DNA of 64,000 bases from Blasia pusilla (Eukaryota): positions 41,478,001 to 41,542,000 of the forward strand of contig CM114271.1 in assembly GCA_050084515.1 (NCBI GenBank), written 5' to 3'. The notes beneath the pieces are model-generated. The model worked only from the letters and a program-made list of their open reading frames with translations, was not told where the DNA came from and did no database searches. Both the position numbers and the translations under genes were made by a program. This document shows positions 8,674 through 64,000 of this stretch, piece after piece. Position 1 is the stretch's first letter. Each line of letters starts with the position of its first letter.

Positions 8674-9175
8674 CCAAGTCCCTGACCCCTACTCCCTTGG
8701 GCCCCAACTCCCTAACTCCTGAGAGAAAACAGGAAAATAAGCGAGCGGCGAGTAGGAGGAGAATGTAGTGTGTGCAAGCTTCTCTGGATTGCAATGGCAC
8801 AAGAATGAGGTGCGAGATCGAGCACATGAGGATTGAGGACCGAGTCCCCACTCCCCAACTCTCTTCCGAGTCCCAAGTCCCGAGTCCCTAACTCCTACAG
8901 CAGGGATGAGGCTTGGATGAGCGTCTAAGACTTTGAGTGAGTCACACTCGCCTGTCCAACTCCCGGAACTCGATGAGGTGTGTCCGACAGCCAATTTCTT
9001 CCACTTTTTGTAACCTATGGTACGGTGGCAGCAAGCAGTACAACTGAGCAACATGGAGCAGCGTGAATTAGCGATTGAGCAGCAAGAGAAATAGAGCATT
9101 GAGCAAACATAATAAGAACTAAGCAATCACGACAATGAGCGCTGACAGCAGTGAGGAGTAAAGACAATGACGAGC

Positions 9176-9347
9176 TAGCAACGAGGCACCGAGGACGAGC
9201 GAGCAAGGAGGCGCCGAGGACGAGCAAGCAACGAGGCGCCGAGGACGAACGAGCAACGAGGCGCCGAGGACGAACGAGCAACGAGGCGCCGAGGACGAAC
9301 GAGCAACGAGGCGCCGAGGACGAACGAGCAACGAGGCGCCGAGGACG
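9176..9347 (+). repeat. 25-bp tandem minisatellite (~7 units of GAGCAACGAGGCGCCGAGGACGAAC) inside an unclassified repeat (~8674-9579)
   Basis: Units start at 9176, 9201, 9226, 9251, 9276, 9301, 9326 with no spacers. Confidence 0.9.
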
Positions 9348-9579
9348 GTGTCACGGTGAGGACTCAAGGAGTAAGCACTAAGCACACCGAGCAGCCACCA
9401 ACGAGGCGCCCAGGACGACGACGAGCAACACGGCTAGCAGAAGTAAGCAGAGACGCAACCACGAGCATTCAGGAAGGAGAGAGGAGAAAATGAAAGCCGA
9501 GACTCGGGTTGCAAATGCCTCGAGCTCAGTCGATCCCTACTCCCCGGCCTCCCTCTCTCCCGAGTCCCGACTCTCGAGG

Positions 9580-9844
9580 TGTGAAGTTGTGAACTGCCGC
9601 TCTAGAGTTGCTCAAAGGTAGAATGCCCTCAAGGCCTCTCCTCTTCCTTTATATACTTAGAGATAGGTACAATGAAGACAAATTAGCTCTACCTATCCTT
9701 ATGCCACATGTCCTACTCTCATAGCATGAGAGAATCTCCTTTGGAGTCTAATGTCCCAACCTCATATTCCTCAACCTCATCCTTATCTCCCTTTTCACCA
9801 ACCTATGGATCCCCTGAGCTGGAGAGTTACAATGGTATCAGAGC
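9580..9844 (+). mobile_element. LTR remnant followed by a tRNA-iMet primer-binding site
   Basis: ...GAGAGTTACA followed by TGGTATCAGAGC at 9833-9844; left boundary uncertain. Confidence 0.55.
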
Positions 9845-12800
9845 AAGGTTGCTCTTCCAACGAGAGTGGATTACCCCTCTTCTTTATCTCATGTATCTTG
9901 TCTGTTCTCTTTTTGGTTGATTCTTTCCCACTTATGCGCTTCATGTCATAGATTCTAACTTGACTATGACTAACAAAGGATGGTTACACTAGGGTTGCTA
10001 CATAGCAACCAAAATAGAGAGTAACGTGCTCTCTTAGGTTCCTTTAATCATCATCAAGTCATCCTTGAAATTTTAAGGTTATCATTGGACTTCCTTGAAC
10101 GCACCCTACAAATACTTGTCAAATCTGCCATAAAAGTTGTGATATATGAGCTCCCATATGTTTTCTCTACTACTCTTTGTGCCCCATCTTACAAAGAGGA
10201 GCTCCTAGTGCTTAATAGAAGGAGACTTGGACATAGCATAAAAAATAGAATATGCTTTGAAAAGGAGCTCTAAAAGTCCTTGTAAACTATCTTTCTCAAG
10301 TGAAGCTAAGGGCAGCAAGTTTCCTATTAACGCTGTTTCCTTAATTAAGATTAATCGATGTCATTGAGCTTGCAAACTTAACAACTAAATTTTCAGATTT
10401 TATTGCAAGCTTAGACATTCATGATGATACACGTAACTGTTGGTTTTTGACCTCTTAGGATCTTGCCCCATGGACCTGGACTTTGCAAGGTCGTAGCAAG
10501 TGTACTTGTGGATAGTCGGTAACGTAGTCTGACAACGAAATTCCCCCTTCTGTCGACTTTTTGGTTACTCTGTAACTGGAACTGGGAGGTAGCAGCGTCG
10601 AAGTACTTGCACCGTGCTTTCTCGTGGCGCGAATCCCGTCGGCGTCCCATTTGGATGCTATTTTTTGTCCGACGGAGCCTACAGATTTGGGACAATAGAG
10701 TTGGATCCATGCGAGCTCGGCCGCATGAGAGTGTCATGTGAGTTGGCAGCTGTGGCCGCCTTCGACGGGAGACCTCTTAGACGGGATGTCCAGAGTCAAG
10801 CGTTGGTTGCCATTAGCTGGTTCAAAAACTTCATAGTGTGTCTGCAAGCTGGCAGATACGTTTGGCGCGCTGCATGACGCCTCGTCTATTTGATGGTGCG
10901 AGAGTTGTGACCCGTCCGAATTGAACCGCTTCTCTGCTCAACAATCTTGCTTGCCGCCCGCTCAACTATTTTTTAGGCGCTGTCTACTTGCGGAATCTCT
11001 CTGCTCACTTCTGTGGTCGGACTTCAGAGGTCACTACCATTTTAGTCGTGTGGAATCTCTTCATTTATCGACGTTGGCTCGCTTCAAATTTCAAAGCCCT
11101 GTGCACTTTCGTTCGCTGCATTGTGCTACTGTGATTTAGCTGTACTTGATCGATCTCATCAGTGCGTCAACACTCGTTGGTATCTTCATTCGATTACAAA
11201 TTCATCGTAAGTAATGGTAGCTGGCTAGGGCCGGTTCTACCCCTGATCTTTTTGAAAGCTCGTGTTCACCCCGGTCTTTAATTCGCAACTTACAGGGGTC
11301 TCCTTACGCCATCGCAAAGGGTGGAGCATTTGTCTATGCATTTATGGTTCTGGTGCAGATTTGCTGTCCAGAGATATCCGATTCGCGTGATTCAGACAAC
11401 TGCGTGCTGAAAAATTGGCCTACGGGCTTGCTCAAGCCATTGTCCTCCAATCACTTGAATTTTGAGCTAGTACGACTTGAGTGTCTTTGTGCTCTGCACA
11501 TCTCGTGTCCCGTCAAAACTAAAATGAACGCGCTGAAAGCAAGTCAAAATACCAGGGCACGTCGCGCCGAAGTCATAAAGTTTGACGTGGTTGCGATTGT
11601 CACGATTACCTGGACAATAGTGAGACGCATGTCAAAGGAATCATGTGGGCATTCAAAAATGACTAGTTCGGAAGTTGTAAACCTCTCGCAGAGTCACTTC
11701 CAAACCCTGCTGCCCAACGTGAGCGTAGTTTTGCAGCGAGGTTGGAAGCCACTGGAGCGGAGAACCTTCTTGGAGCGACCATCTACTACCACGACAAAAT
11801 TATAACTCGGTCAGGAACGCAAGTTAGGCTCTAGTCATATGCCGAGAACACTTGCGGAGCGGCAGGTTCAATCGTGCGCAGGCTCTTAACTACTCCTCTT
11901 CACAAGAATGTGCAACCTTTCTTGCTTCACTGTCGATGTTTTCCGAGTGCTCTCGTTTCAGATGTTGTTCCACCAAAACTCATAGTTTGTCTCGGAAACG
12001 CATTGAAGTCGCGTAGGGTAGCGGCTACGTCGGGCGTGGGTTTTAGGCTCCGTGCCCGGCTCTCCACCGTGGCACCGTCCAACCGGACGTCGTTTGGCCC
12101 CATCCCTTTCCCCTCCAACGGACGGGGATGGGGGCAAACGACGCCGTCGCGACCTTGCTCGTCCTTCTTCGCCGAACCTAAACTATGGGCTTCAATCATC
12201 GAAACTATCGGGCTCCATTAGAGGGCTTCCCGATTAAATGAACACACGGTACCCAAAGAGCGTCGTGTTCATTAGTTTTCTGGTAATTTACCGATATACA
12301 TTTACTGACTGTAGCAGTCTACGGATATTCCAAGCACTTGACCTTAAGCGATTCTACCACTGTGATACCCAAGCAGGTTGATGAATACGCCCCTGATGGC
12401 TTGAAATATACGTAGACTGCTACTGTCTTAGCAGTCACACTGCTATTGCTTTCAGGGCTCGGGAAAGTGATAGTGGGTCGCTGGAAATGCGAAATGGAGA
12501 ACAGCTCATGCAACGTTCTACGGGGGAAGTGATGCATCTAGCACCATGGGTAAGCACGCAAAAGGACTTTAAGTAAGACAACCTAAATTTAATAACTAGA
12601 ACCAACGTGTGCATGTCCAGATCTTTTCATTTCACCGCTATGCACTATAGTTAATTCTGAGGGTTTGTCGTTCTGGACTGTCGTGATGAGAGTCCTGAAA
12701 GGTGCCGCCGATATGAATGTTGATTTTAGAGCCGTCCGGAATCTACAGTTACCGTCCGAAAGCAGTTACCGATCCTTATTCGTTCTACATTCTGATGCGA

Positions 12801-27300: not shown

Positions 27301-27409
27301 TGGAGTAATCTCCAATCTCATTTGTTATCTAGGGATGAAGTTATATCCAAAACAACCTAATAACCCTCTACGCAGTGAACACGGTAGAACTCTACCTATC
27401 GGATAACTA

Positions 27410-28990
27410 AGATATGATAGAGACCTTATCATTTTTGGGCTTTGGATTGGACTTTACTTTTCATTGAAATTTTGCAAGGAGATAAGATAAGATTCCACCA
27501 ACATGTGAACATCATATAATGTGGAGATGATATTTTTGGATTAAAAAAAAATGCATACCTTCTTTTACTTCGGAACATTTTATCATGTAGGTCTAAGAAA
27601 ACCTTGTCATTTTTAGGCTTTGGGTTGGACTTCCATTTTCTTTGAATTTTTTCAATACGTTTAAATAATTTTCCAAAAAAGAATGGGCATCACTTTATTT
27701 CAAGATCATATTTTTGGATAAAATAAAAAATTATAGACCACCTTTTTCTTATGAATATCTTATCGTATGGATCTAAGAAGATATTTTCATTTTAGGTTTT
27801 ATTAGAATTTTTTTTTTTGGAAATTTTGCAAGGAGGTAAGATATGCTTCCACTGACAAGTTGAAAAAAAATTCATGTCGATATCATATAGTTGGATTAAA
27901 ATTCAACGTAAAAATGCACACTCACTTTATCTTTAGAATATCTTATCGTGCAAGTGTAACTCATCATTTCCGAGATTCGGGTTTGATTTCCATTTTCCTT
28001 GGAATTTTCTTAAGAGGTTAGATACACTTCCATAAATAGGAGGAAAAATCATCTCAAGATCATCTAGTTGGAATTAAAAAAATGTACACTACATTTTTTT
28101 CTTAGTAGGTATACATTATGGCTCCGGTCTAAAGTGATCTTAGCATTGTGGGTTTGGGTTGGAATTTCATTTTCCTTCAACTTTTTCAAGGTGACTAGAT
28201 ACACTTAAAAAAATACATGGACATCATTTCCAAATCAAGATCATATTTTTGGCCAAAATAAAAAATGAAGACCATATTCTTTTCTTTAGAACATCTTACC
28301 GCATGGGTCTTTGAAGACCTTGTCATTTTTTGGTTTTTGGTTGGACTTCCATTTTCCTTGAAAATTTGGAAGGATTTTAGATACACTTCCATCAATAAGT
28401 TAAAATAATTTTTAAAGAAGAAAACATATTTGGATTAAATTAAATATACATATCACATTTCTTTAGAACATCTTAATATCAAGTGGATCTAAGAAGACAT
28501 GGGTTTATGTACACTTTCATGAACAAGTGGAAAATATTTAATATGAAGATTATATTTTTTGGATAACATGAAAAATGCACATCCACTTTTTCTTTAGAAC
28601 ATGTTATTCCATAAGTCTAAGAAGACCTTATTATTTTTAGGATTTGGGTTAGATTTTCATTTTCCTGAAAATTTTGCAAGGAGATTGGATGCACTTTCAT
28701 CAAGTGAAAAACTTTTACTTTCAAGATCATCTAGTCGGAGTAAATTAAAAATGCAACCCACATTTTAATTCTACTTTTCCTTAGTAGATATTTGTGGGCT
28801 TTGGGTTGGACTTCCAAATTCCTTAAAAGTTTACAAGGAGGTTAGATACACTTCCATGAATAGTTGGACAAAATTTAGTGTCAAGATCATATAGTTAGAG
28901 TAGATAAAATTTACGTACCATATTTTTTTCTTAGTAGATCTTATCTCGTGGGTCTTAAGGGGCTTTATTATTTTTAGGCTTTGGGTCATA
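27410..28990. repeat. Degenerate AT-rich tandem array, ~180-bp period, about 8-9 units
   Basis: Motif gacctt.tcattttt.ggctttgg.ttggacttccattttc.ttg recurs near 27421, 27601, 27781, 27960, 28135, 28317, 28622, 28795, 28961. Confidence 0.75.
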
Positions 28991-30899: not shown

Positions 30900-32570
30900 T
30901 TTCCTCTCAATGATGCAAGTGGAAGAAGTGCTAAAAAATTTGTACTCTGTGAGGATGTTGCCAAGAAGCAGCTGCAAGAATTCATGGTTTTCCTTCGTGG
31001 ATGTCGAGCTCTGTTGCAAGCTGTAAAATGTTTTGAAGATGTCTTGCATGCTCTGGCTTCGAGTAAATTGAAGAAGCTTGTGGTTCCAGGTGTGTGTTGC
31101 TTGCTGCTATTGTCTCTCTCCCGGGATCTCCATATAGTACCCTCTATACTTTATGATCTATTTTTTTATTATTGTTGAGTGATAAGTTTTTGTCTTTCTC
31201 CTTTATCACTTCTGAAAGTGACTTTTCAATTGTAGATAATCCTTCCTCCAGGGTCATACATCTTGCAATAACCTTATGGATTTTCCTTTTCCGTGTGTGA
31301 TATCCAAGTGATGGAAGTGTTGACATGACGGAAATCATAGAATACTTTGAGACGACCTTTGATTACAAGGAAGCAGAGAAGACAGGCCGTATAGTATCAC
31401 GTGAAGGTGTGGATGAGGATTTTGACGAGGCTGCTATTGTCTCTCTCCCGGGATCTCCATATAGTACCCTCTATACTTTATGATCTATTTTTTTTATTAT
31501 TGTTGAGTGATAAGTTTCTATCTTTCTCCTTTATCACTTCTGAAAGTGACTTTTCAATTGTAGATAATCCTTCCTCTAGGGTCATACATCTTGCAACAAC
31601 CTTATGGATTTTCATTTTCCGTGTGTGATATCCCGGTGATGGAAGTGTTGACATGACGGAAATCATAGAATACTTTGAGACGACCTTTGATTACAAGGAA
31701 GCGGAGAAGACACGCCGTATAGTATCACGTGAAGGTGTGGATGAGGATTTTGACGAGGCTGATACAACTTTCAGAGATGTAACTAAGAAATTGATGGACT
31801 ACATTGACAAGCAGTGCAAAATTTTTGGGAATTCATCAGAGGTGGACTAAGTAGATCAATTGAATTCCATCATTACATTCCACCTTGGAATGTAAAGTCT
31901 CAGGAACTTCCATCTGATATGCTTCCTTGCCAACTTTTACTTCATTGATCAATACGTTACCAGCTGGCACTTCTTGGGAAATGATCTTTTTTCAAGTCTT
32001 TTATAAGCAGACTCGTGCATGATTTTCCCAAATAGGACACACTTGTGTCTTATAAATGGAATGCTAATTGAACCTCACAAGTTGCCATATGGATGTAGAT
32101 CAATTAAGTAACAGTTGGCAAGGAAGCATATCAGATGGAAGTTCCAGAGACTTTACATTCCAAGGTGTTGAATAGCTTTGAAGTGCGATCTTCTTGGAAG
32201 CTTTGCTCCCTACATCACTATGCTTGGCCAGTATCTAGCCCAAGGTTTTTGCAATTCTTGTCAGTTTGAATCCAGAATGTTGATTGGAATTGTTTAGAAT
32301 TCTATGGATATCTTAGAGGTCCAAATGATTTTGGAGACTAATCGTGACGGTTGAGAATTTATATGCAGCCGTTGGAATTTGTCAAGGCTACCAAAGGTAC
32401 TGGACTCCAAAAATCAATGAACTATTACAAGAACTGGGTGTTGGAGAGGAGCAGCGGGAGCTTGCACTTCAAGAAATATTTTAGGGTCTTGTGAAACATT
32501 TTTGTCGACATTATCAACATTGGATATTTTTTATTAAATTGGTTTCTAGTGAGATGCTTTCATGAGATGG
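30900..32570 (+). pseudogene. MSH6: MSH6 (MutS homolog 6) internal fragments, about four exons with introns
   Basis: ASGRSAKKFVLCEDVAKKQLQEF...LRGC; FETTFDYKEAEKTGRIVSREGVDEDFD; VTVGKEAYQMEVPE; GYQRYWTPKI match the plant MSH6 core; contains stops and rearrangements. Confidence 0.8.
31105..31760 (+). repeat. ~325-bp tandem duplication of an MSH6 intron plus partial exon
   Basis: gctattgtctctctcccgggatctccatatag... at ~31106 repeats at ~31433; both units end ...gatgaggattttgacgaggctg. Confidence 0.9.
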
Positions 32571-38198: not shown

Positions 38199-41100
38199 TG
38201 TGGAAAAGTGCTAAAGAAGCATAACTGGTGGAAAATGGCTCTCACACTCACACACCACCATTGAGAATGAAATTTGCAATGAGAGAATAAGTGGAGGCTG
38301 ATTCCCTTCTCAATTATATAGGGTATGTACAAGCAATCCTAACCCTATCCTTAACCATAGTCTCGAGTTAGACTTATTATGATTAACTAATCCTAGTTAA
38401 GATAATCGCGCTTAATTGACTACCAAGATTAAGCTTCCCTACTTCGTGTGAGTACCAAATGTAGCAGTTTAGGTGTCTCATGAGCTTGAATGTAACTCAA
38501 TCTTCAATACTCCCCCTCAAGCTCATATCGATATCTCTAACACCAAAATCATTTCTAAACATCTCAAACTTATCTCTAGACAATGCCTTTGTAAAGATGT
38601 CAATAATTTGTTGATCAATTTCTCATGTAAGCACTTTCTCTCTAATAAAATACTAGTGCACCTCAACATGCTTTGTACGAGAGTGAAACACAAGGTTATT
38701 AGCAAGCTTGATGCTACTAATATTGTATGCATATTTTACACTAGGTCCTAAGTTACTAACACCAATCTCAACAAGTAATCGATGAAGCCACACCGCCTCA
38801 CATGCTGCATTGGTTGCTCCTCTGTACTTAGCCTTTGTTGAAGATAAAGCAACTGTAGGTTGCTTCTTTGAAGCCCAACTTATAACTGCGCTTCCCAAGG
38901 TAAATGAATAACCAGATGCGGAGTGTCGATCAGACACGCTTCGTGCCCAATCAACACATTTGAATCCCTGTAATTGAAAACTCGGAGAAGGTTCAAATTG
39001 AAGCTCAAATTGAATAGAGAATTTCACATACCGCATAATCCTCCTCACAACATGAAGGTGAGGTTTTCGAGGTGCTTGCATAAATTGGCTCACTAGGCCA
39101 ACAACATAGCTCCAATCGAGTCTAGTTATAGTAGATAGATCAAACTTCCAACCATGCGCAAGTACATATTAGAATCTGCAAGCAACTCTCCTTCATCCAC
39201 TCTTAGTTTCATACTCCGGTCCAACGGTGTAGAGATTGGCTTACAAGTCGTCATATTATATTTTGAAAGCATATGAAGAGCATATTGTCGTTGTAGTAAC
39301 CAAATGCTCTCTCCAAACTTGATAAACTCAAAACCAAGGAAGTATTTTAGTTCTCCCAAGTCTTTCATATCAAATTCTCCTTGTAACTTAAGCTCGACTT
39401 GTTGTACTATTTCTTCAATATTCCCAGTAATCAAGAGATCGTCAACATACAACACAATGAGAACCTTATGATCTTGTCCTCTCAAGACATATAATGAGGA
39501 GTCAAAATGACATACCCTAAAACCCAACTCTTATAGGACGTATGTAATCTTGCCATACCAAGCTCTTGCAGCTTGTTTGAGCCCGCATAGAGCTTTCAAC
39601 CTGCATACGCAAAATGGAAACTTGGGATGCTCCAAGTAGTTGAATCATATATACCTCCTTCAACCACTATTCCCGTAGTCGCCATCTTTGCAACACGGCT
39701 AAATGTTTTTTCATAATTGATGCCATATTGTTGTGCATAGCCCTTAGGCACCAATCTCGCTTTATATCTTTTAATTGTATCATCTTGATTGCGCTTGATT
39801 TTATAAACCCATTTGCAACCAATAACTTCCTTACTAGAAGGTATATCAACATGCTCTCATGTCTGTTGATGTCTTAATGCAGCAAGCTCTTCCTCCATAG
39901 CTTCAATCGATTCAACTTTACTCGGAGCTTCAAAACCATTCGGCTCATGTTCTTGAAGGGTAGTCATCATATATGCATGATGTGTCGCAAGAAAACCTTC
40001 ATTTATGAATCTATGAACGGGATGTGTAACTCTACTTGATCTACGAAGTTGTTGTTTAGAGGTAGATGCCTCCTACACTTGACTCGAGCTCTGACTAGTG
40101 TCAACAGACAAATTACGTACTCTTTTTGTCCATGGACTCACAAATTTAACAAATGAATCTAGGACCTCTCTTAATCCTGCACTAGTACTTGGGGAAGTTG
40201 TAGATAATATTTATTGGTTTACAATCATATTCTCCTCCTCAACAGACGAGTTTAGAGGTGGAATAGGCTCAGATGGAGCATACCATGACTTTAGCTCATC
40301 AAAGACAATATCACGACTAATAATAAGTTGCCTAGAGGATGGACTATAGCACTTTTACCCCTTAGTTTCATCAGCATAGCCAATGAAGATACATCTTTCA
40401 AACTTGGGGTCTAATTTCTGACGTCTCTCAGAAGGAACATGAGCAAAACAAATACAGCCAAATACTTTCAAGAAGGAAAAATCAGGTTTACTTCTTGTGA
40501 AGACTTCGAATGGAGTTTTATCATGAACTTCTCATGTTGGAGTTCGGTTGATTAAGAAGATTGTACATGCTACATCCTTTGCCCAATACACCTTAGGCAT
40601 GTTCTTCTCATTCAACATAGCTCATGCCGCTTCAGCAATATGTCGATTCTTCCTCTCAGCCACTCCATTTTGTTGTGGAGTGTAACGGCAAGTCACTTGA
40701 CCTTGGATGTCATTTTGACGTAAATAGTCATCAAACTTTGTTGAAAGATACTCTCCTCCTCCATCACAACGCAAATTCAAAATGTGTTGTGCAGTCTGCT
40801 TTTCTACTAGAACTCTGAATGTTTGGAACACTAAGAATACTTCTATCTTGGCTTTCAGAAAGTATACCCATATATATATAGAGAAGTCATCAATAAATGA
40901 AACAAAGTACTGAAAACCACTAAGGCTATATTGTAATGATGTCCACACATCACTGTGGATCAACTCTAATATCGTGGATGCTTTTCTACCTTGCTTTGGA
41001 AAAGGAAATCTAGTTTATTTTCCAAAATGGCAAGAAGGACATACCTCAAACGTAACAGGACTCGCTAATTTAGGGAGTCCTATTACCATATTAGATGATG

Positions 41101-42700
41101 AAAGATTCTGTAATCTTTGAAGATTCATATGTCCAATTCTTTTATGCCACACATTTAGATATGTGACTTGTTGATCGGTTTGACCATATATTTCTGTTTG
41201 AATCTCTGGCATAGAAACATCTAATTTGAACATTCTGTCACATCTAGTTCCTTTGGCTATTATAGTCTGGTCATCAATTATTTCCATGAAACAACCATTT
41301 ACGTTAAACTTCACTTCATAATCTTTTTCTACTATCGGTCCTACAGAGATCAGGTTTCTTGCAATGGTAGGAACATAGAGAACATTTCCAAAAGCACAAA
41401 GACCAGATGATGCTATTGGAACTTTACCGATATGTGTGGTATGATGTTGAGTGTTATCTCCTATAAGCACAATTGCTGGATCTTTCACCGGCTCCAAGCT
41501 ATTGAACCATTTAGCTTGTGAGGTCATATGATTTAATGCACGGGAGTCAATGTACCAATCTGCTATCGAGTCTTTCTTGACCATTACTCCCATATGATGA
41601 AACATGACCAAGAGATGCTCCATTTGTGAATGTTGTTGTTCTTGGTACTGCTTTTGGTGTTGTTGCTCCACATAGTTTTGTTGTTGTAAGGCTCCTGTTC
41701 TCATATCTGCCTTCTTCTTGAAGCAAAAATTTGCATAGTGACCGTTTATCCCACAATAATTGTAAGATCCAGGGACCCTCTATTGCTGACCTCGACCCCA
41801 ACGATTTCCACCATTACCACCTTGTAATTGTGTCTGGTACTGGTTCGTTGTTGATTGAGTGACGTTATATTGAGTGCCTCTTCCTCCATATGCTTGATAT
41901 CCACCACAACCACGGAAGCTTTTGCCACGACCTCTGCCTCTATTTGATCCATAACCTACAAATAGCACACTCTCTTACACACTAGACGAGCTACCGTTGC
42001 CTACTAGGCGCATCTCTTCACTGATTAACAATGGGACTAACTCTTGAAAGGTTGGATACTTCTCTCTCACAGAGATGGACGTCTCAAAGCACTTGTAATC
42101 CTTTGGAAGGCCTTAAAGAGTGAAAAAAATCAGATCATCATCTTCTACTATCATTCCAATGCTATTCAACTGATCAACAATATGTCTGATACTCAAAATA
42201 TAATCATTGATGCTCTACGATCCTTTCCTCACTTTGTTCGATTGTTGTTTCAATTGTAGCTTTCTGGCCTTTGTAGATATCTGGAATAGCTTTTCCAATG
42301 CATCCCAGGTCTCCTATGGATTATCAACATCTTGAATATGACCTATCATTGGGCAATTGATTGTTATTGAAATGTACTAGATTACTTGCCTTGCGCGTTT
42401 GTTCCAGGCGTAAATATTCAAGTCACCTTCTGGCTTGGCCTCATCACCTATGACAAGCTCCCATTGTTCTTGACCCATGAGAAATTGTTTTATGCGAAAC
42501 TTCCAGACATTATAATTTTGCTTATCTAGCTTCTCGCATGTGATTGCTACTGAGGAATACTCCATGACGAACAATTTCACTCCCAAGAAACCTAATTGCA
42601 GGCTCTCTATTGCTCCAATTGAAGCATAGATCACTCCTACACAAAAATCGACCTGAAATTTTCCAAAATCAATCAATTGCATGAAAGAACTAGTCAGAAT
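38199..42700 (-). mobile_element. Degenerate Ty1/copia element (gag-PR-INT-RT-RH), 3' LTR ~38199-38509, 5' end truncated
   Basis: gag MEYSS..EKLDKQNYNVWKFRI (ATG 42565); WYIDS; WHKRIGH; IHSDVW...PQQNGVAERKNR; LYVDDLL; SWASKKQPTVALSS; PPT (CTCCCCCTCAA on +) at 38510-38520. Confidence 0.92.
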
Positions 42701-42821
42701 TGGCCTGTAGAGAGCTGTCGTGCGAATCCACATCGTCATACAACATACATCGTTGACATACCATACTCACATATATACATAACATAGACGAGATCATACA
42801 CAAACACAAGTGTACCACAAC

Positions 42822-43295
42822 TGAAATCCGTGAAAGACCTATTGTCATAAAATACGTATAGAATCACATACAATCGAGCCAAACCCACTCCACGATGGGA
42901 GAATCCAGGTCGAAGCTTGCGGGAACCACCATAGCCAAGAGCTCTACTCACTACCAAGGCTAACTCCCAACACAATAGGCTCAACTCAAAGAACTAACTG
43001 TTGTTTGAGTACACTCCACACTATACCCTCCAACCTAAGGGCGGGCCCTACTGGAAAAGTCACCCTTAACGGAGTAACCCCCAACCCTATGTATGAAACC
43101 GCATCCCTACCTAGACACTATGGCCCGACATAAGGTATGGCCTCTACTAGCACATTATACTCTACGACATAATCCGTATGGTCATGACAGCTGTCGTGCG
43201 AATCCACATCGTCATACAACATACATCGTTGACATACCATACTCACATACATACATAACATAGACGAGAGCATACACAAACACAAGTGTACCATA
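42822..43295 (-). repeat. 3' LTR (~474 bp) of DNMT-gypsy copy 1, with a partial second LTR copy at 42713-42819
   Basis: PPT GGGGGGCGAGT (minus) at ~43296-43306; 43189-43298 nearly identical to 42713-42822. Confidence 0.7.
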
Positions 43296-43456
43296 ACTCG
43301 CCCCCCAAACTGGCAGATAGGTCCTTCTAACTCCCAGGTAGCCCTATACATCTACTACATGCTATACACCTTCGTGGGTGCACGAATCAGAAGGCCGGGT
43401 GCGAGGTTGCCCCATCTGTAATCCATATCATGCAAAGATCAAGTCATCTACCCCTC

Positions 43457-43684
43457 CTAAGTACATCGAGGACAAACCCACCTTCCAGTAGGAACAACAT
43501 CCATACATGGAGTCAAACACATCATGTGCCAACCCCTAGAACACCGATCACACACCAACATACGGGCTGCGTTACCAACAGACCCACACAACATGCACCT
43601 CAAGCTAGCACGTATCATGGCTAAGCTTGGGTCAACAGTACCATCCACATTTGGAAGATGACATGACGCACATGGCCCTTCCAA
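43457..43684 (-). pseudogene. PHD finger at the integrase C-terminus
   Basis: CMLC...MLVCDRCSRGWHMMCLTP...VPTGRWVCPRC is a canonical C4HC3 with the conserved W. Confidence 0.92.
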
Positions 43685-46069
43685 ACAACTCCGTCACGAC
43701 CCTCCAACATGAGAACTCCAGAAGCTAACACCTCTCGCACTCATAAAATAGTGCGTCATGCCGTCACATCCAACGTTGTCAGTGTAACCTGCTGCAAATA
43801 GACATAGTCCCCCACATGGAACCTACAAATCGATGGTTGATAACTTCCACCTCGAATGGTTGCATACCGCAACGTATCCTTGTGTTGAGCAATGCAAGAT
43901 TCTCAAAGGCTATTGGCATAACTCTCCGAAAGAGCTCTGCCCGCTGAGAACACACTCTCATCCACATCTCTGGGTCATCAAGGTTCACCACCTCACTAGA
44001 CTCCCAACAAATTGCTGTTGGCAAGTCTGGATCTCGACCGTATAACAGAAAATAAGGTGAGAAGGAAGCCAAGGATGCTTGGCGATTGAATCTATACCCC
44101 ATGGCTAACCATGACAACTGAATATCCCAGGCTCCAAGATGCCCCTTGTGTAGGCCATACTTGCGCAATGCCCTCTTTACCGTCTGAACCACACGCTCAG
44201 CCAAACCATCCGCCTCTGGATGATCTCAAGACGTGGTTTGATGATCAATCAACGCCTTGTCACACAAGACCTGAAACTCACCCTGAAACTCTGTACCCTG
44301 GTCGGTCAGCACCTCAACTCGTGCACCAAAATGACTAAGCACTCTATCAAGAAATGCATACGCCGTTCCCTCACTTACCTTGTCAGGTAATGCCACCAAC
44401 TCAATCCACTTGGAGAAGTGCTACACCATCACCAACACATATCGATGATACCGTATAGTCAACCACTTGAGTGGCTGGTGATCAGTAACAAGGGTAAATT
44501 GTGTGCCAAACAAGTAACACCTAAAGTGTGCCACAACCCACACTACTACCAAGCACTCTCCCTTATATGAACTATATCGCGACTCCGCTGAATTATTCGA
44601 ACGACTTGCATAGGCCACCACAAACTCCATATGCTCATCATCATGTTGTGTCAACACCACTCCAAGTCCCAACATACTCCAATCAGTGTGCAACTGAAAT
44701 GGGCACCCTCTGATAGGTCTCCTCAAGATGGGCGTGGCCACCAATTGGGCCTTGAGCTCCACAAAAGCTCTCTACTGATCATCTCCCCAATGCCACTCCT
44801 GATCTGATTTCAGCAATTGGTTCAGAGGCTTTGCCATAGCACTAAATCCCTTCACATACCTCCAATAGTACTTCGCCAATCCCATGAATGCCCGAACTCT
44901 ACTACATCTACCGCATGAGGAATAAGTGCAATAGCCTCCACCTTTGCTTGTTGAACTCCCAAACCACCTGGATAGATCACATGACCCAAGTACTCAACAT
45001 CCTCATGGAAGAACTTACACTTTCGTGGATGCAAAGGTAGACCATGAGCTTTCAACCGCTCAAACACAATCTGCAAATGTATCTGATGCTCCTCCACCGT
45101 GTTATTGAACACCAAGATATCATCAATGTAACACCAAACAAAATCCAACCCTACTAGGATCCTGTCCATCACTCTCTAAAACGCGGCAGGTGCATTCTTC
45201 AACCCAAAGGGTAAGAATTTCCACTGGTACAAACAATCCTTGCCATGAGAGTTGACACCCGAAAATGTTGTCTTGGCCTGGACACTCTCTCGAATCGGCA
45301 ACTGATGGTATCCTACCCGAAGATCCAAAGTACTGAAAATATTTTCCTGTCCCACCATATCAAAGATCTCCTCAGGTGTAGGCATGGCATACCTATCGTC
45401 GTTGGTTTGCCTATTGATAGGACGGTAATCTCCACACATCCGCCTATCCGTGTAGTTGCCATGCACATCCTTTTTAGCAGGCATGACAATGGCTGATGCA
45501 TACTCTCCATGCGAAAACTCCACTAATCCAGCCTCCAAAAGGTCCAACGTCCTACTCTGAATCAGGTCCCTCTCCATATCACTATATCGGTAGGGACGAC
45601 GGAAGATTAGCGTATCACTAGCCAAATCAATCCGTACACCGGGTCCAACCAAAGCACCCAACTCCTTCATGCTAAAGGCAAAACAACTCCTATAAGCACG
45701 TAGGAACTATGTCAAGCTTCATTTCTCACCTCCCGTAAGCTTGGGCCCAAGTAATGGCTCCCAAGTCTCCTCCACTCCCACACTAGAGGGAGAGGACGAC
45801 GCCACTGGCTGCTATGCAACCCCCTCACAAGATGGTACACCCTTTGCTACACCATCCTCTAAGCAAATAACTCCTCCACCAGCATGAGCAACCAACTCCA
45901 CATGCCCAGCCATTACATCCCATTTACTCCAAGGATGCAAAATACTACTTTCCTCGCCCCCAGCTGATGCCTCTACCGTCCCGGTAGCCATCGAACTCAT
46001 CACAAGGGATGGAAGATCCATAGACATAGTCTGAAGCCGACGCTGCTCGGCCATACCAAGACTCAAAAT

Positions 46070-47360
<1,291 letters not shown>

Positions 47361-48540
47361 CCTCGGGCGGATACTGCCATACAATGGGTGTAGTATCCAA
47401 AGGGGATAACCCAACTGGACCAGAAGTAGGAGTCCGCCATGGAGCCTCCTCTTCCTCGTGAGGTATAATAGCCTCACACCAAGCCTCCTACACTAGGCGA
47501 TCAGCCCTGCCGTAGTGCCCCGCCTGAACTCCAAAGTGGCACATCCAACGATGAGGATACCACTACTGCAAAACTAGGGACCTCCTCTACCTCCTCATGC
47601 ACAGGATAATCCATAGCAGAAAGGTTACCCTCCAAAAAGTCTCCCGGCCAAGTGACTACTAACACTGTTGGGGAAAACCCCCCGGAGTGCCAACCAGGTC
47701 TATACGATGTTGTCTCAGTCCAGTAGTTCATCTGAAAACCCATCGGGTACAATACTGCTCCTCCAACTAGTACATCATACGACTCGGCCGATGTGACCAC
47801 TGCTGGTACTCCCAACTTGGAGCTATCAATCGCATGATCTGGTCTCAACTGTACAAACAACTTCCCCCGTGTCATGAAATGAGACCTATCATTGGCTCCT
47901 CCAAGTGATGTCTCAATCTGGAATGGACAAGGCTCAAGCTCAGACCTCCGAATACCCAAACCAATACATGCTGCCTTTCCGAACATCAAAGGTTGGGCAC
48001 CAGAGTCTAACAAGACTCTATCTGGTCTATACACATGTCTTGTAGGACTCACCAATTGGAATATCCCACTCCGGTTGTCCAACATACAAACCAGGTGTAA
48101 GCCTCTCACAATCAATGGCTGGCCTGGCTGGTAATGCATCCATCTTCGCCCCTGTTGCTTGCCAAGTAGTAATGGTACTCAATGTTACACGTGACATAGA
48201 GGGTTGCTCCACTGCAACACCCTCATCCACCTCAGGACATGTAGCAGTAACACTCTCACGTTCACACAACGTGGCTGCTAGCTGAAATACAAGAGCTAAG
48301 TCAACTCCTAAGGCCATCAACTTAGTGGCTGAAAATAATGGGGATCCCAACACTAAAGTTGCCATCCGCTATACTGCACTAGATGATGCATGTGTGTCTA
48401 CTACACGCGATGTAGATGCCTCAGTCCCCACTGTAGGCTCAATAGGCTTCCTATGAACCATGGATGGAGTCCTAAGCACCTCAGACAACAAGAATGACTG
48501 GGGGACCCTAGCGTGCCTCCCATCCTCACCCCTCTGTGGG

Positions 48541-49130
48541 TCAACATGCTTTATATGAGCATGAAACACAGGGTTATTAGGAAGCTTGATGCTACTAATA
48601 TTGTCTGCATATATTACACTAGGTCCTAAGTTACTAACACCAATCTCAACAAGTAATCGATGAAGCCACACCGCCTCACATGCTGCATTGGTTGCTCCTC
48701 TGTACTTAGCCTTTGTTGAAGATAAAGCAACTGTAGGTTGCTTCTTTGAAGCCCAACTTATAGTTGGGCTTCCCAAAGTAAATGAATAACCACATGTGGA
48801 GTGTCGATCAGACACACTTCCTGCCCAATCAGCATCTATGAATCCCTGTAATTGAAAACTCGGAGAAGGCTCAAATAGAAGCTTGAATTGAATAGAGAAT
48901 TCCACATACCGCATAATCCTCCTCATAGCATCAAGGTGAGGTTTTCGAGATGCTCGCATAAACTAGCTCACTAGGCCAACAACATAGCTCAAATCTAGTA
49001 GTCTGGTTATAGTTAGATACATCAAACTTCCAACCATGCGCATGTACATATTAGAATCTGCAAGCAACTCTCCTTCATCCACTCTTAGCTTCTTGCTCTC
49101 GTCCAACAGTGTAGAGATTGGCTTACAAGC
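48541..49130 (-). mobile_element. Second Ty1/copia RT/RNase H fragment, near-copy of ~38665-39250
   Basis: FIDADWAGSVSDRHST..SWASKKQPTVALSS; long nucleotide identity with the first copia element. Confidence 0.9.
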
Positions 49131-51180
49131 CGTCACGATGACGGTGGTGGCCAAAACAAAGTACGTGGTGGCGACCCAAGTCAGAGAATCAACGAACGTC
49201 ATGGAAGACCCTCCACTCTGTAATGGCGGCAATGGAAACCAAAGGGTGGACAACGGCCGAATGAAGCTCTTAGCAACAATGGGCAACAACAACGGCCGAC
49301 AATGGCCGGTGGACAGAGGACCGTTGACCGTTGACGGTGACGGTTGACCATTGATGGTGACGATTGACCATTAATGGTGAAGGTTGACCATCGACGGTGA
49401 CTGTTGACTGTTGAATGGTGACAGTGACTATGACGGCGATGGCGGCCGCCGGCGTGGCGGCTGGTTTAGGGTTTGAAGAATTTTAACCCTAAAAATCGCC
49501 TAGCAATGGCAGATTTGCAAGATTGACCATAACTTTTTACTTGCAACTCCAAATTCTGTATTGTTTATTGCACAATGTGCATAACTTCACGATCTATGAC
49601 AAAGAGAAAAAATATTTGGAATTGGAAATTCCTGTAAAAACTGACAGGGATTGTCGTAAAGCCCAATGTCTCTTTCTCCTACACAAAATCCGGGAGCGTT
49701 TCCGCGCTGATTTCTCCCAACCAAAATGTAGAACCTATAAAAATCAGCAAGCTGCATGGTCCTCTTGAGACTATCGGCATGGGGCAATCCTTTCCCATAA
49801 TCAATCCCTATCAAAAATTGGGCAGTGCTTGCGCGCACCACTCTTCCACACAAAAAATCGGCAAATGCAAAGAACAATCAAAGCAGCCCTTACTCCAGTG
49901 AGCACTCCCATGAGCTTTTGAATAGGGAACACGGTCCCCAACCTGCAAAAACAGCAAGTGACCAGCGAGCTCTCCCATGAAGCTCTCTCACTCTCTCACT
50001 CTCTCATTCTCTCATTCTCTCATTCTCTCTTTGTAAAGTAAGATCCAATCTCTCTCTTTACACCATCTCACACCATAGCTCTCAAAGGTGTGCATTCTCT
50101 CTCATGTCAAACCAAACCCACTCTCCTAATGAGAGGCTTGGATTACACTCACAAGGCAAGGGACCATAGCTCGGCCGCCTCATGCCAAGAGGTCCAACAA
50201 AGAGAGAATGAGCTCTCAAACTCTCTCTCCTTGAGGTATACCCCTCTCCTCTCCCAAGCTCTCTCCATGGTTATCTATTCTCCCAAGTCATCTCCTTGGC
50301 CCTTGACCTCCTACATCAGGTCAAGGGCCACTTACCAAAAATAAAAATTCAATCATATACTCAAAATGGTACTTACCTAAAATAGTAACTTATTAATTAT
50401 GGCTCCAAATGAGCGGAAACGAAGGGGAAACCTGCTCTCTCATGTTTCCCTCTGCCTCAATAGGTCATCCTCGACCTCCTGGGCCTGTCCCCCACTACTC
50501 GTGCAGACGCTCTGCTAGATCCCACCGATCTATCCTAACAATTGTGACTTGGCGGAGCTATGGCCCTCCTTGCCTTGTATGTGTAACCCAAGCCTCTCAT
50601 TAGGAGAGTGGGTTTGGTTTGACATGAGAGAGCTTGGTGTGAGACCTTGTTATTGTGATGGAGAGATTTGATCGATTTACAAAAAGAGAATGAGGATTTG
50701 AGAGTTACAATGCAAGAGCTCGCTGATGTTCACTATTTTTTGCAAGTTGAGGACCGTTTTCCCCCCTTCATGGCTCATCAGGTTGCTCACAGGGGCAAGA
50801 GCTATACAGTTTGATGTTTTTCATTACTGGTTTTTTGTACGAAAGAGTGGCGCACGGAAGCGCTGCCCAATTTTGTTAGCAATTGAGTATGGAGGTAGAT
50901 TTCTCCATTCCGGTGCTCTCAAGAGCACTATATAGCCCTCTCATTTTTTTTGTCACAGGTTTTCAAATTTTGTTGGGAGAAATCAGCGCGAAAGCATTGC
51001 CAAATTTTTTGTAGAAGTGCAGATTGAAGGGCTACATGATAGTCCCCATCAATTTTTATTGGAAGGTCAAATGAAGGAACAAATCTATAGATGTTGTAGA
51101 TCAAGAAGTTCTGTACGTTGTCAAAGAAACGATGCGCAATTTGAACATTTGAGCACAAAGTTGTGACACTTTTTGTCACC
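49130..51180. repeat. Two inverted partial copies (~49130-50460 minus, ~50570-51180 plus) of the LTR family seen at 58662-60679
   Basis: ctcatgtcaaaccaaacccactctcctaatgagaggcttgg (50101) is the reverse complement of ~50589-50628 and resembles ~59360-59400. Confidence 0.8.
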
Positions 51181-60679: not shown

Positions 60680-60888
60680 ACGTCCTTTCGTGACTTTGAG
60701 AGGCAAGGTGGTGGACCGGAGAGTAGCTCTAGAGGGTTTACACGGAGTGGCGCGAGGTTTCGAGGGTCTCCACATGCGGGACCACCCCAACCTCCTTCTG
60801 TGTCATCTTCACACAAGGAGGAGGGCGTAGAGGAGTTGAGTAGTGCTTTGCCACTCACATTGAGTAGTCCTACTGCTTGGGAGTACGA

Positions 60889-63800
60889 GATGGACGACCG
60901 GGGTAGAGGACCGCATAGGTTCTCAAGTGTAGTAGGCACCATAGAGTTGCACGACTTCATCGCGGAGTTTTGGAGTCGATGCGACTCACAGCGGGCTAGG
61001 AACTCTAGAGAGTTCAACTCGTTCACAACATGGAATGGTATGTTCCAGCATTTAGAGGGGGCACCCATGGATGATTACCATGAGTTCTCCCACAGATATG
61101 CCCAAGAGATTGAGGCATGGTGACTCTACTATAATCCACACTATGTGTCATGGACGGAGCCGTTCCCAGATGAGGAGGAGGAGTCAAGAGAGGCTACTTC
61201 CTCTTCCACTAGTGATGTTTTAGGAGGGGTAGCTTGCACTAGAACAGTTGCACGGTCCAGTTGGGTTTGTCCCAGGTTCAACCGCGTGGTTGAGTTCTTC
61301 ACTGAGTTGAGGGCGAGCAATCAAGGGGTACAGACGGAGAAGTTGCGGAGCATCCACGACTTCCGGAGCGCTCGGGTGAGAGTTTGCGCGAGGCTTACAC
61401 TCGCTTGCGCCGGTTGATCAACGTCACTCAAGGGGTGACACAAGCTCACGCTATCCAGTGATGGTACACGATGCTAGATCGGACCTTACGGACACGGGTG
61501 CGAGAGGGGGTACTTATTATAAACACCTCACCTACATTGAGAGATGTTTTGGTCATGTGGTGGAGCCCATCATCAGCGTGATTGCACTCGGCAGGGTTAT
61601 GGATGTGTGCCTCAGCATGGAGGAGGAGATGGTGTTGCACCATGAGGTTATCAGTGTGACTATTGTCATAGGTATGGTCATACACACGCCAGGTGTTTCA
61701 GTCTACATCCTGTATTACGTCCGGACCGAGGGCCAGAGAGGGCACCAAAGCAAGTAGCCGATTTGGATGGGCCTAGAGATTGTGCACCAAGTGGTCACAT
61801 CGGGGGACGAGGAGGTGGAGTTTCTCGACACAATGGTGGAGTTGCCCATGGGGGAGGTAGAGTCCCACCACCTAGACGCGTTGAGGGAGACGCTGGGCGT
61901 GAGGCTGGGATGGCTGCTCATATACAATAGCTACAAGAGCAGATTGCCACGATAGCGTTGAGGTTATCGGATGCCGGATGGATGGCATCGACATCATATG
62001 GAGCAGCCACATATATGGAGGATCCAGGTTGGATATGCGGGGTTGCCCACATGGAGGCCCCCGCAATTGTGATGCGTGGAGTACCTGTATGTGGAGATTG
62101 ATGATGTTGCAAGGCGCGCTTCACTTCACCTGTGGCATAGTAACGCCCCTGTTTTCCGGACTTGTTGTCTGCGTCCGCCATTCAGGGTTACCAGAGTTCT
62201 CTATCGAGGGACATTTCATTATTGGGGACGCAGGACTTGGAGCGAGTAGGGACCAAAGACTTGGTCATTGCTGGTTGGCCATGTCAGGGCCAGTCAAGTG
62301 CTGGACGGCGTAGCGGATTAGCTTACTCTCGGTCCAGGTTGTTTTGGGAGATGATGCGGATCTTGCGACACTTGGAGGAGCATCAATCTCGTCCTCCAGC
62401 ATACATTCTAGAGAATGTGCCAATTTTGGGCAATTAGAGGTCCCGTGTGGTGACAAGTGCACATCAGGTGTGCGCATAGATCGGCCCGGAAGTTTTGTTG
62501 GATGCGGCAAGTGTGGGTTCACGAGCACATCACCCGCGTCTTTCGTGGACCAACTTGGTGCCACATGAGGCGTTGTGCATGGCTTATGCGAGAGTGGAGC
62601 GCCCCTTCGATTTTTGGTGGATTCTATATTGGATCTGGGCCGTCGATCATAGGAAATGAGGCACAATGATCGACCGCCGTTGACTATGGTCAACAGGATT
62701 GGCATGCCACGAGGAGCCTTTCCCACATTGGTAAGTTTTCTCGCTTCCTATGGATTCAAGGAGGCGGGACCTGGCTTGGTTTGGGATGACCTGGTACAGA
62801 GGTTGGTGGAGCCCAACCCCGATGAGCGAGAGCGAGCGATGGGATTCCCCACAGGAGTGACGATAATACCATCACTAGCAGAGGCATCACAACGTCATGT
62901 CTTGGGTCAGGAGATGGACCTGAACTACTTGACATGGATTTTCAGGTTAGGAGTAGCCAAGCAACATCGTTTGAGGATGCGACATATCACAGCACTTGCA
63001 CTGGTGAGCCTCATCCGTACCGAGACGGTTGAGGCAATGGCTGGGGACGAGACCCGAGGAGATCGACACACCAAGGCTAATCTGGAGAGACACTCTTGAA
63101 CTTCTCGGGATGTTTTGCAGGTACCGAGACAGGGTTGCACCATAGCAACCACCTACACCTACGCCAGAGAGTCCTATCGTAGTCACGATGGAGGCTTGGG
63201 AGCCAGATATGGGCCCTAAGCTGACAAGAGGAGAGCAGCGCTGGATACACCAATTCCTTAGGAGTTATAAGAGTTTTTTTGGATTTGGCATGCATGATTT
63301 GGGTATGTTGAAGGGTCCAGGGATCCGCATTGAGTTGTTGAGCGACACGCCAATCTTTCGAAGATCCTACAAGTATAGTGACATGGAGAGGGCTCTGATT
63401 CAGAGTAGGAGCCAAGACTTGGTTGAAGTAGGACTAGTGGAGATGTCACATGGGGAGTATATATCTGCCACTATCATGCCTGCCAAGAAGGATGTGCATG
63501 GCAACAGGACGGATAGACGGACGTGTGGAGATTACCGACCTATCAATTGGGAGAAAAAGTCCGATAGGTATGCCATGCCCACCCTTGAGGATGTCTTTGA
63601 TGCGATTGGGCATGCAAAGGTCTTCAGTTCATTTGATTTGCAAGTCGGATACCATCAACTGCCTATGAGATTGGAGGACAGGCAGAAGATGGCATTTTGG
63701 GACTTCAATCCTCACGGGAAGGATTGTTTGTACCAGTGGCGGTTCTTACCATTCGGGTTAAAGAACGCCCCGGCTGAATTTCAGAGGGTCATGGATAGGA

Positions 63801-64000
63801 TCTTGGCAGGTCTGGATTTTGCTAGGTCTTATATTGATGACATCGTAGTCTTTAGCGCCATGGTTGAGGAACATGAGAGACATCTAGAGGAGGTGTTTTG
63901 ACGATTACAGTTGCATGGGATGAAGCTACATCCAGGCAAGTGCAAGTTCTTCTATGACCAGATTGAGTGTTTGGGTCATACGATATACCCAGGGGGCCTT
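60889..64000 (+). mobile_element. Ty3/gypsy retrotransposon copy 2: gag-like - (protease largely deleted) - DNMT - RT; runs off the window
   Basis: gag-like ORF at 60889; DNMT 62080-62940; RT 63188-64000 (CGDYR, LPFGLKNAPAEFQR, YIDD). Confidence 0.9.
62080..62940 (+). pseudogene. DNMT3-like methyltransferase domain (copy 2), catalytic PC retained
   Basis: YLYVEIDD; DLVIAGWPCQGQS; YILENV; EPNPDERERAMGFPTG...QRHVLGQEMD; motif I apparently deleted; frameshifts. Confidence 0.85.

Follow-up and report, generated by a model that had tools for sequence, protein, structure and literature searches.

A PHD finger at the integrase C-terminus of bryophyte Ty3/gypsy-type retrotransposons with a DNMT3-like domain

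Does a retrotransposon of bryophytes carry a PHD finger on its integrase at the place where chromoviruses carry a chromodomain, and what would such a finger do in an element that also encodes a DNA methyltransferase? The question is raised by a stretch of 64,000 nucleotides (nt) from Blasia pusilla (the window; the positions below are window coordinates), in which the relic of a Ty3/gypsy-type element on the reverse strand ends in a sequence for a PHD finger. A sequence-only reading of this locus had claimed that the element holds a chromatin reader and a writer at once, and as a description of its domains this is right. We found that the relic belongs to a family of Ty3/gypsy-type retrotransposons with a DNMT3-like domain and a PHD finger at the C-terminus of the integrase. 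The relic itself matters only as a pointer to this family.

The finger behind the integrase

The PHD finger of the window copy is of the C4HC3 type, comprises 45 residues and forms the C-terminal module of Pol (43463-43597, reverse strand). It lies in an open reading frame (ORF) piece of 78 amino acids (43460-43693, reverse strand), residues 33-77 of which match Pfam PF00628 with an E value of 1.5e-9. The score of 38.2 bits is above the curated cut-off of 24, the full profile (positions 1-47) is covered, and 8 of 8 zinc ligands are present with the canonical C4HC3 spacing; the model of a homologue, described below, supports the assignment. The ORF is closed by a TAG stop at 43457-43459 (reverse strand), which is probably premature by three codons, because the translated relatives read on for three codons more. 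On its other side, the finger is joined to the C-terminal barrel of the integrase by a linker (43598-43693, reverse strand) that is conserved in the relatives. There it contains a Cys-Ala-Pro-Cys-His motif, of which C318, A319, P320 and C321 (numbering of the relative P0012) are nearly invariant. A polypurine-tract-like run of six G (43301-43306, reverse strand) abuts the first terminal repeat and sits 150 nt downstream of the TAG stop, in agreement with the distance of ~150 bp between the PHD and the polypurine tract that had been read from the sequence. In 27 of 33 loci of the relatives, a run of at least five G lies ~170 nt past the codon for the last Cys.

The catalytic core of the integrase (rve; 43878-44462, reverse strand) was located by tblastn with residues 51-245 of P0012 (87% identity) and by a Pfam match (PF00665, 44229-44420, reverse strand), and the C-terminal SH3-like region of the GPY/F type (43660-43893, reverse strand) by tblastn with residues 241-318 of P0012 and by the barrel in the model of the homologue. 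This barrel region is interrupted by stops, and its frame differs from that of the PHD. Altogether, the tblastn matches of the family integrase (44462-43878, 43893-43660 and 43744-43451) fall in three frames separated by two frameshifts, and in-frame stops are found at 44226-44228 and 43779-43781. Thus, of the claim that an intact C4HC3 PHD follows the integrase, the finger stands, with all of its ligands and a significant Pfam match, and its continuity with the integrase does not, since the two are in different frames in the window. The whole copy (42710-48548, reverse strand) is an old, dead, frameshifted relic that makes no protein, because it is 5'-truncated, its integrase and PHD are spread over three frames and it contains several stops.

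The relatives provide the fusion that the window copy lacks. With the PHD stretch as the query, we obtained 59 proteins, the labelled ones being from Marchantia polymorpha, Calypogeia fissa and Sphagnum fallax. Both rve and PHD occur in a single protein in P0012, P0022 (Sphagnum) and P0026 (Calypogeia); in these, the zinc-binding region of the integrase is followed by the core, the barrel and the PHD, and the protein ends 1-4 residues after the last Cys. Pieces of DNMT, integrase and PHD are united in a Marchantia protein, P0019. Metagenome contigs were scanned as well and yielded 151 relatives, of which we kept 80 loci. In one of these (L003), a 374-aa ORF joins the integrase and the PHD. A PHD match was found past the integrase in 67 of the 70 metagenome loci with enough downstream sequence; the misses are L045, L070 and L071, yet L070 has an intact motif in a separate motif check. 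All ligands lie in an open stretch in 43 loci, and the frame closes 2-4 codons past the last Cys in 42 of them. The proposed in-frame fusion of integrase and PHD therefore holds in the three proteins and in L003, and the finger is terminal in the 42 loci; it fails for the window copy. No intact full-length copy was found among the 80 metagenome loci, all of which are decayed (longest ORF, 467 aa).

We also scored P0012 against 1.84 billion cluster representatives (50%-identity clusters). There were 601 clusters with E <=1e-30, and the best 150 all had E <=1.3e-85. The best-scoring stretch covers the whole integrase-PHD in nearly all of these 150 clusters, and the C4HC3 motif is present in 135 of them. 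The ratio of nonsynonymous to synonymous substitution rates (dN/dS) of the PHD between subfamilies was 0.11-0.38 where dS could be estimated, many pairs being saturated. Within the main subfamily it was close to 1 or higher, apart from one pair with 0.38, as expected for copies that decay after insertion. The between-subfamily ratios indicate, from sequence comparison, that purifying selection acted on the PHD during the active period of these lineages. One conceivable explanation of the finger is that it is a functionless passenger, namely an exon captured from the host or a stretch that is rich in cysteine by chance, and the window copy, in which the PHD has a short ORF of its own out of the integrase frame, agrees with this. 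However, the PHD is in frame and terminal in the relatives, its motif recurs in the best clusters, its dN/dS between subfamilies is low and its Pfam score exceeds the curated cut-off; we regard the passenger explanation as extremely improbable.

The profile of the family integrase (positions 3-293) matches Ty3 Gag-Pol (7q5b) with an E value of 2.7e-25. The order of Pol is that of Ty3/gypsy, with protease, reverse transcriptase (RT), RNase H and integrase, and the DNMT is placed between the protease and the RT. A chromodomain (PF00385) was found in none of the window ORFs, the family proteins, 23 relatives or the Pfam lists of 120 further entries. The PHD occupies the C-terminus of the integrase, and its placement in the chromodomain's position by the sequence-only reading was borne out. 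Like the chromoviruses, the family has an accessory domain of the chromatin-reader type at the extreme C-terminus of the integrase, behind an SH3-like barrel; unlike them, it has a PHD instead of a chromodomain, and the likeness drawn here is one of domain position.

Co-inheritance with the methyltransferase

The second domain in question is a DNMT3-like C5 cytosine methyltransferase, which in the window is frameshifted (46557-47505, reverse strand; PF00145, E 3.7e-8) and reads TCQ in motif IV instead of PCQ, the family sequence. In the family, the enzyme has retained motifs I, IV (with the catalytic PCQ) and VI (ENV), and the PDB chains nearest to it are those of DNMT3A/B (E ~1e-6), with M.HaeIII and DNMT2 ranking behind them. 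In P0063 and P0065, the DNMT is in one protein with RT and RNase H. An initial scoring rule assigned both PHD and DNMT to 21 of the 30 metagenome loci that were testable for both domains, and listed eight as having the PHD only. We rejected these eight as full copies that lack the DNMT, as all of them are truncated or internally deleted: L015, L016 and L046 have an internal deletion that fuses the DNMT directly to the integrase, and L042, L061, L062, L073 and L074 are 5'-truncated or internally deleted. Every metagenome copy that is complete from gag to integrase has the DNMT. The divergent subfamilies, with an integrase 49-61% identical to P0012, have gag, protease, DNMT, RT, RNase H, integrase and PHD in this same order. 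As a separate observation, the deletion derivatives L015, L016 and L046 have kept gag, protease, DNMT, the C-terminus of the integrase and the PHD, and have lost RT and RNase H; the deletion break is identical in L015 and L016.

The association extends to green algae. Labelled members among the clusters are from Haematococcus, two Volvox species, Tetrabaena, Chromochloris and Klebsormidium nitens. In a Pfam scan of 23 clusters, the commonest order was RT, RNase H, a gap of ~650-750 residues, Integrase_H2C2, rve and PHD, and the gap scored as PF00145 in four of the 23. Departures from this order were P0207 and P0216, which have no gap, three short integrase-PHD proteins, and P0084, which has two integrase copies. 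When the bryophyte DNMT was used as the query, 115 of 232 relatives matched; the rows viewed had 34-42% identity and E values as low as 5e-70. A stretch of 1000 residues or more precedes the PHD in 71 relatives, and 63 of these have the DNMT, which ends at a median of 514 residues before the PHD, i.e. between RNase H and integrase. The eight exceptions include P0084, a chimeric model, and P0085, which begins in RT. The expectation that PHD and DNMT co-occur across relatives is thus borne out by all copies that are complete enough for the test and by these 63 of the 71 long relatives.

An unrooted tree was built from 42 integrase-PHD stretches, and in it the bryophyte family and the K. nitens protein P0314 were grouped with 98% support in the Shimodaira-Hasegawa-like approximate likelihood ratio test (SH-aLRT). 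The same group holds P0085, P0086, P0088, P0098, P0123, P0146 and P0207, all of which end 3-15 residues past the PHD (P0314 was outside that check). In P0207, the DNMT lies before RT, as in the bryophyte elements. The position of the DNMT differs between two types: it is before RT in the streptophyte-type elements and between RNase H and integrase in the chlorophyte-type elements. The algal-type relatives (P0087-P0315) continue for ~340 residues past the PHD (e.g., residues 577-940 of P0090), and 103 of 104 such tails are mutually homologous. The tail has faint matches to adenine-methyltransferase families, below the cut-offs (E 0.03-0.18), and in language-model and structure look-ups it resembles small phage and bacterial S-adenosylmethionine methyltransferases; it may be a second methyltransferase, which we mention as a lead only. 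One further relative, P0275, with rve, H2C2 and PHD, is labelled as part of a Spirochaetia metagenome bin and is probably a mis-binned eukaryotic contig.

Co-inheritance raises the possibility that the PHD serves the DNMT3-like enzyme, guiding or gating it on chromatin as the ADD domain does in animal DNMT3, so that the element would methylate itself or its landing site. This agrees with the joint inheritance of the two domains, with the 63 long relatives that have both and the lack of any sufficiently complete copy without the DNMT, and with the retention of motifs I, IV and VI in the family enzyme. Furthermore, in the algal type the DNMT, integrase and PHD follow each other without RT between them, and one processed protein could contain all three. 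However, in the bryophyte type the DNMT is separated from the PHD by RT, RNase H and integrase, and the PHD always stays directly behind the integrase barrel on a conserved linker, whereas the DNMT has moved within Pol. An ADD-like module was considered for the finger itself and rejected: it is a plain single PHD of 45 residues, and no ADD chain of DNMT3 or ATRX is among the 60 PDB rows listed. The likeness to animal DNMT3 is thus one of logic only, in that a zinc-finger reader is encoded alongside a DNMT3-type catalytic domain. We consider it unlikely that service to the methyltransferase is the main role of the finger.

A DNMT3-bearing element has been described before. De Mendoza et al. (2018, PMC5890265) reported a DNMT3 within the Gypsy Pol of K. 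nitens (KnitGypsy-Dnmt3) and assigned its gain to the K. nitens lineage; according to the same paper, the element has Gypsy domains and terminal repeats 'the same as that of a DIRS retrotransposon'. In the text, legends and three supplements of that paper a PHD is nowhere mentioned. Compared by text, the family described here is like KnitGypsy-Dnmt3 in having a DNMT3-related domain in the Gypsy Pol ORF; its repeats may have the DIRS-like layout described, and the tree joins it to a K. nitens protein, P0314, which may or may not belong to KnitGypsy-Dnmt3. It differs in its hosts, which are bryophytes (Marchantia, Calypogeia and Sphagnum) and not a charophyte alga. DNMT3-bearing streptophyte retrotransposons are also referred to in the available text of a 2025 paper (PMC12344493). 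Judging from these comparisons, we think it most likely that the published Gypsy-DNMT3 elements of streptophytes include this family as their bryophyte branch. Our literature search for a bryophyte Gypsy element with both DNMT and PHD found none.

The terminal repeats deserve a description in this context. At the 3' end of the window copy (42710-43298, reverse strand), two X repeats (43186-43298 and 42710-42822) flank one Y repeat (42823-43185). In L003, a Y of 337 nt is found at 2705-3041 and again at 11458-11794; it stands alone at the 5' end, and the X-Y-X repeat region at the 3' end spans 11339-11908. The locus L028 has a Y pair matching that of L003, with one Y at its 5' end, but no X pair. 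A pair of X repeats (~113 nt, ~455 nt apart) directly follows the G run in 7 of 33 loci, including the divergent L061. Two identical bounding long terminal repeats (LTRs) were not found; the layout is Y...X-Y-X, and the window copy is without its 5' end. On sequence grounds, this layout fits the A1...B1-A2-B2 split direct repeat of some DIRS-type elements. The repeats resemble those of DIRS-type elements, yet the family encodes a DDE integrase.

Another combination of reader and writer is that of the EpiLTRs (bioRxiv 10.64898/2026.05.21.726589), LTR retrotransposons of Cymbomonas and Euglena with a chromodomain and adenine and cytosine methyltransferases. In the available part of that preprint, PHD domains are unmentioned, the EpiLTR DNMT is placed as sister to DNMT4, and the streptophyte Gypsy-DNMT3 is treated as a separate acquisition. 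As described there, the EpiLTRs are like the present family in joining a chromatin reader and a DNA methyltransferase in one LTR element, and differ in that their reader is a chromodomain and an adenine methyltransferase is added, whereas the present family has a PHD and a DNMT3-like domain.

The ligand of the finger and the choice of target

Among the PDB rows listed, the closest solved chains to the finger by sequence are those of PHF12, CHD4, KMT2C/D, PHD1 of KDM5A/B and Lid, PHF21A (BHC80), DPF2/3, ATXR5, WSTF, BAZ2A/B, UHRF1 and AIRE. An AlphaFold model of the Marchantia homologue P0001, made from a 46-row alignment, has a mean predicted local distance difference test (pLDDT) score of 82.9, with 91-96 over the PHD, and consists of a beta-barrel followed by the PHD. 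In Foldseek, the finger of this model superposes at 0.6-1.8 Å on those of DPF2/3, BHC80, BAZ2A, UHRF1 and ATXR5, with 0.6-1.3 Å for the first four, and the matches to readers of unmodified histone H3 have 34-46% identity over 45-53 aligned columns. The PDB titles speak of the 'unmodified H3K4 histone peptide' for BAZ2A, the 'unmodified H3 N-terminal tail' for UHRF1 and 'histone H3' complexes for ATXR5. No ING, BPTF or TAF3 chain is among the sequence and fold matches listed.

Two positions ahead of the zinc-binding His, 31 of 32 bryophyte fingers have Gly, as do ~185 of the 207 algal-type ones. We take this position to be that of the cage Trp in readers of H3 trimethylated at lysine 4 (H3K4me3), and a cage Trp of that type is not present in the finger of the family. 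Because of the Gly at this position, and because the nearest relatives bind unmodified H3, we predict from sequence and model that the finger, if it reads H3K4, would read the unmethylated state (K4me0) and not K4me3. The best conserved positions other than the ligands are the MLxCD strand before the third Cys and the P-x-G-x-W-x-C loop; in the solved relatives, it is these parts that make up the surface to which H3 binds. The readers of unmodified H3 (BHC80/PHF21A, BAZ2A/B, UHRF1, ATXR5, PHD1 of KDM5 and PHD2 of DPF2/3) are thus the best matches by sequence and fold and, like the family finger, have no aromatic residue two before the His.

The explanation of the conserved finger that we favour is that it is a tether on the integrase, which would dock the intasome through the H3 tail and thereby steer insertion. 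Riding on the integrase of active elements, the PHD would dock the intasome on nucleosomes through the H3 N-terminal tail where this is free of K4 trimethylation, and new copies would land in silent, gene-poor chromatin, which is the job of the chromodomain in chromoviruses. Chromodomains are reported to direct Gypsy integration into heterochromatin, as cited in the available parts of three papers (bioRxiv 10.64898/2026.05.21.726589, bioRxiv 2021.11.30.470311 and PMC6673714). From the sequence, the model and this analogy, we hold the tether to be an evenly balanced proposition. We infer, in this, that the finger binds histones, that it prefers K4me0 and that it affects where the element inserts, as well as any joint action with the methyltransferase. 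The sequence-only reading had proposed integration guided by the state of H3K4 and possibly coupled to the methyltransferase; we would narrow this to a predicted K4me0 preference and hold it more cautiously for the basic finger of bryophytes.

Several observations weigh against this explanation. In readers of unmodified H3, acidic residues of the surface or loops hold R2 and K4 of the tail. The bryophyte PHD is net basic (K/R exceed D/E by a median of 3, n = 32) and no longer has acidic residues in the first loop, whereas the algal-type PHD is net acidic (median +4, n = 207) and its consensus keeps acidic residues (an E after the first Cys and P-D in loop 1). The bryophyte finger differs in both respects from the solved readers of unmodified H3, and also in being fused to a transposon integrase. 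As the H3 tail is itself basic, the finger of the bryophyte lineage may bind something other than the H3 tail. Furthermore, all 80 metagenome loci and the three copies in the window are decayed, so that activity and target choice are unreadable from them, and the surroundings of old copies, which are rich in transposable elements, may equally result from selection after insertion.

The charge of the bryophyte finger suggests a different role for it, in which the ligand would be DNA or cDNA ends, RNA or a host protein, or in which the finger would be a structural part of the intasome, its likeness to H3 readers reflecting shared ancestry of the fold. In addition to the positive charge and the lost acidic residues, selection on the finger persisted after the charge had changed. 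The top Foldseek ranks for the whole model are the Tudor-PHD modules of PHF1, MTF2 and UHRF1, with those of PHF1 and MTF2 in DNA complexes placed first, the global fit being poor (TM score ~0.3, root-mean-square deviation 12-14 Å, with 14 Å for the DNA complexes). However, the MLxCD and P-x-G-x-W-x-C segments, which bind H3 in the solved relatives, remain the best conserved apart from the ligands, and the nearest solved fingers are nearly all binders of histone tails. We therefore judge a non-histone ligand or a structural role to be rather unlikely, and a little less so than service to the methyltransferase.

Transposons of Chlamydomonas that bear PHD fingers were reportedly described by Perez-Alegre et al. 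in 2005. Later work, in the parts available, calls PHD fingers widespread in retrotransposons (PMC6673714, bioRxiv 2021.11.30.470311) and common in Chlamydomonas transposons (PMC8557442). In Gypsy-7a_cRei (Craig et al. 2022, PMC9940879), a PHD in Gag-Pol was proposed to limit harmful insertions; its intergenic insertions are 2.6 times the chance frequency, which we count as a precedent for the tether, and its LTRs are drawn as sub-parts. Gypsy-7a_cRei is like the present family in being a PHD-bearing Gypsy element; compared by description only, it differs in that the figure legend puts the PHD before the integrase and lists no DNMT. REM1, according to the available text of PMC2774666, keeps a reverse-frame GPY/F module and a chromodomain only.

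If the tether acts as proposed, the reader and the writer might be more than neighbours. The PHD and the DNMT3-like enzyme could be one co-inherited epigenetic module across green algae and land plants, in which the PHD would pick K4-unmethylated chromatin and the DNMT would methylate the element's own DNA or its landing site, rebuilding the logic of the ADD and catalytic domains; the bryophyte finger would then have changed its charge and possibly its ligand. We put this forward as a speculative extension, which we think more probably wrong than right.

The window copy, its surroundings and the reach of the family

The remaining domains of the window copy follow the family order. RNase H is at 44424-44771 (reverse strand; Pfam RT_RNaseH, E 2.3e-27), and RT, in two frames, at 44855-45763 (reverse strand; Pfam RVT_1, and tblastn with residues 696-943 of P0063). 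A protease-like region with the stretch upstream of it lies at 47507-48548 (reverse strand; tblastn with residues 459-830 of P0061), and the relative P0081 has an Asp_protease_2 match at the corresponding place. Family homology stops at 48548, and there is no gag. Between DNMT and RT, the copy is interrupted by a (GT)n/(GA)n microsatellite (45815-46555), recognized from CV and ER repeats in the ORF translations; the relatives have ordinary coding sequence at the matching place.

Two further copies of the family were located in the window by tblastn. The second, at 7132-8678 (forward strand), has RNase H and integrase and is cut off before the PHD; just past it, at ~8700-9600, a repeated charged peptide pattern in the translation suggests a short tandem repeat. 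The third, at 60884-64000 (forward strand), is more divergent, has gag, DNMT and RT, and runs off the end of the window. The relic is flanked by a Ty1/copia element spanning gag to RNase H (38656-42766, reverse strand) and, on its other side, by a copia fragment with RT and RNase H (48372-49370, reverse strand). A direct repeat at 38663-39253 and 48541-49135 was considered as the LTRs of the element and rejected, as it is the RNase H region of these two copia elements. The flanking copia pieces are 93% identical across ~600 nt, and the junctions suggest nested insertion or recombination between transposons. Other direct repeats in the window are five units of ~116-140 nt with 60-78% identity (27386-28929) and a pair of 276 nt with 96% identity (31161-31764).

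The presence of a PHD in Gypsy Pol and of DNMT3 in streptophyte Gypsy elements has already been published, and the idea is less new than the earlier reading of the window had assumed. New here are the occurrence in bryophytes, the strict joint inheritance of PHD and DNMT in a clade of green-algal and land-plant elements that has the DNMT in either of two positions, and the switch in the charge of the finger. The published streptophyte Gypsy-DNMT3 elements are thus extended to liverworts and mosses, and are linked by their integrase-PHD and DNMT sequences to many elements of green algae. The chromodomain is the textbook example of a reader that a retrotransposon carries itself; this family has a second type of reader, the PHD, in the same place on the integrase and always with a cytosine methyltransferase. 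If the PHD does read the state of H3K4, these elements would be a natural system in which to study the coupling of target choice to DNA methylation by a mobile element, and its part in the shaping of plant heterochromatin.

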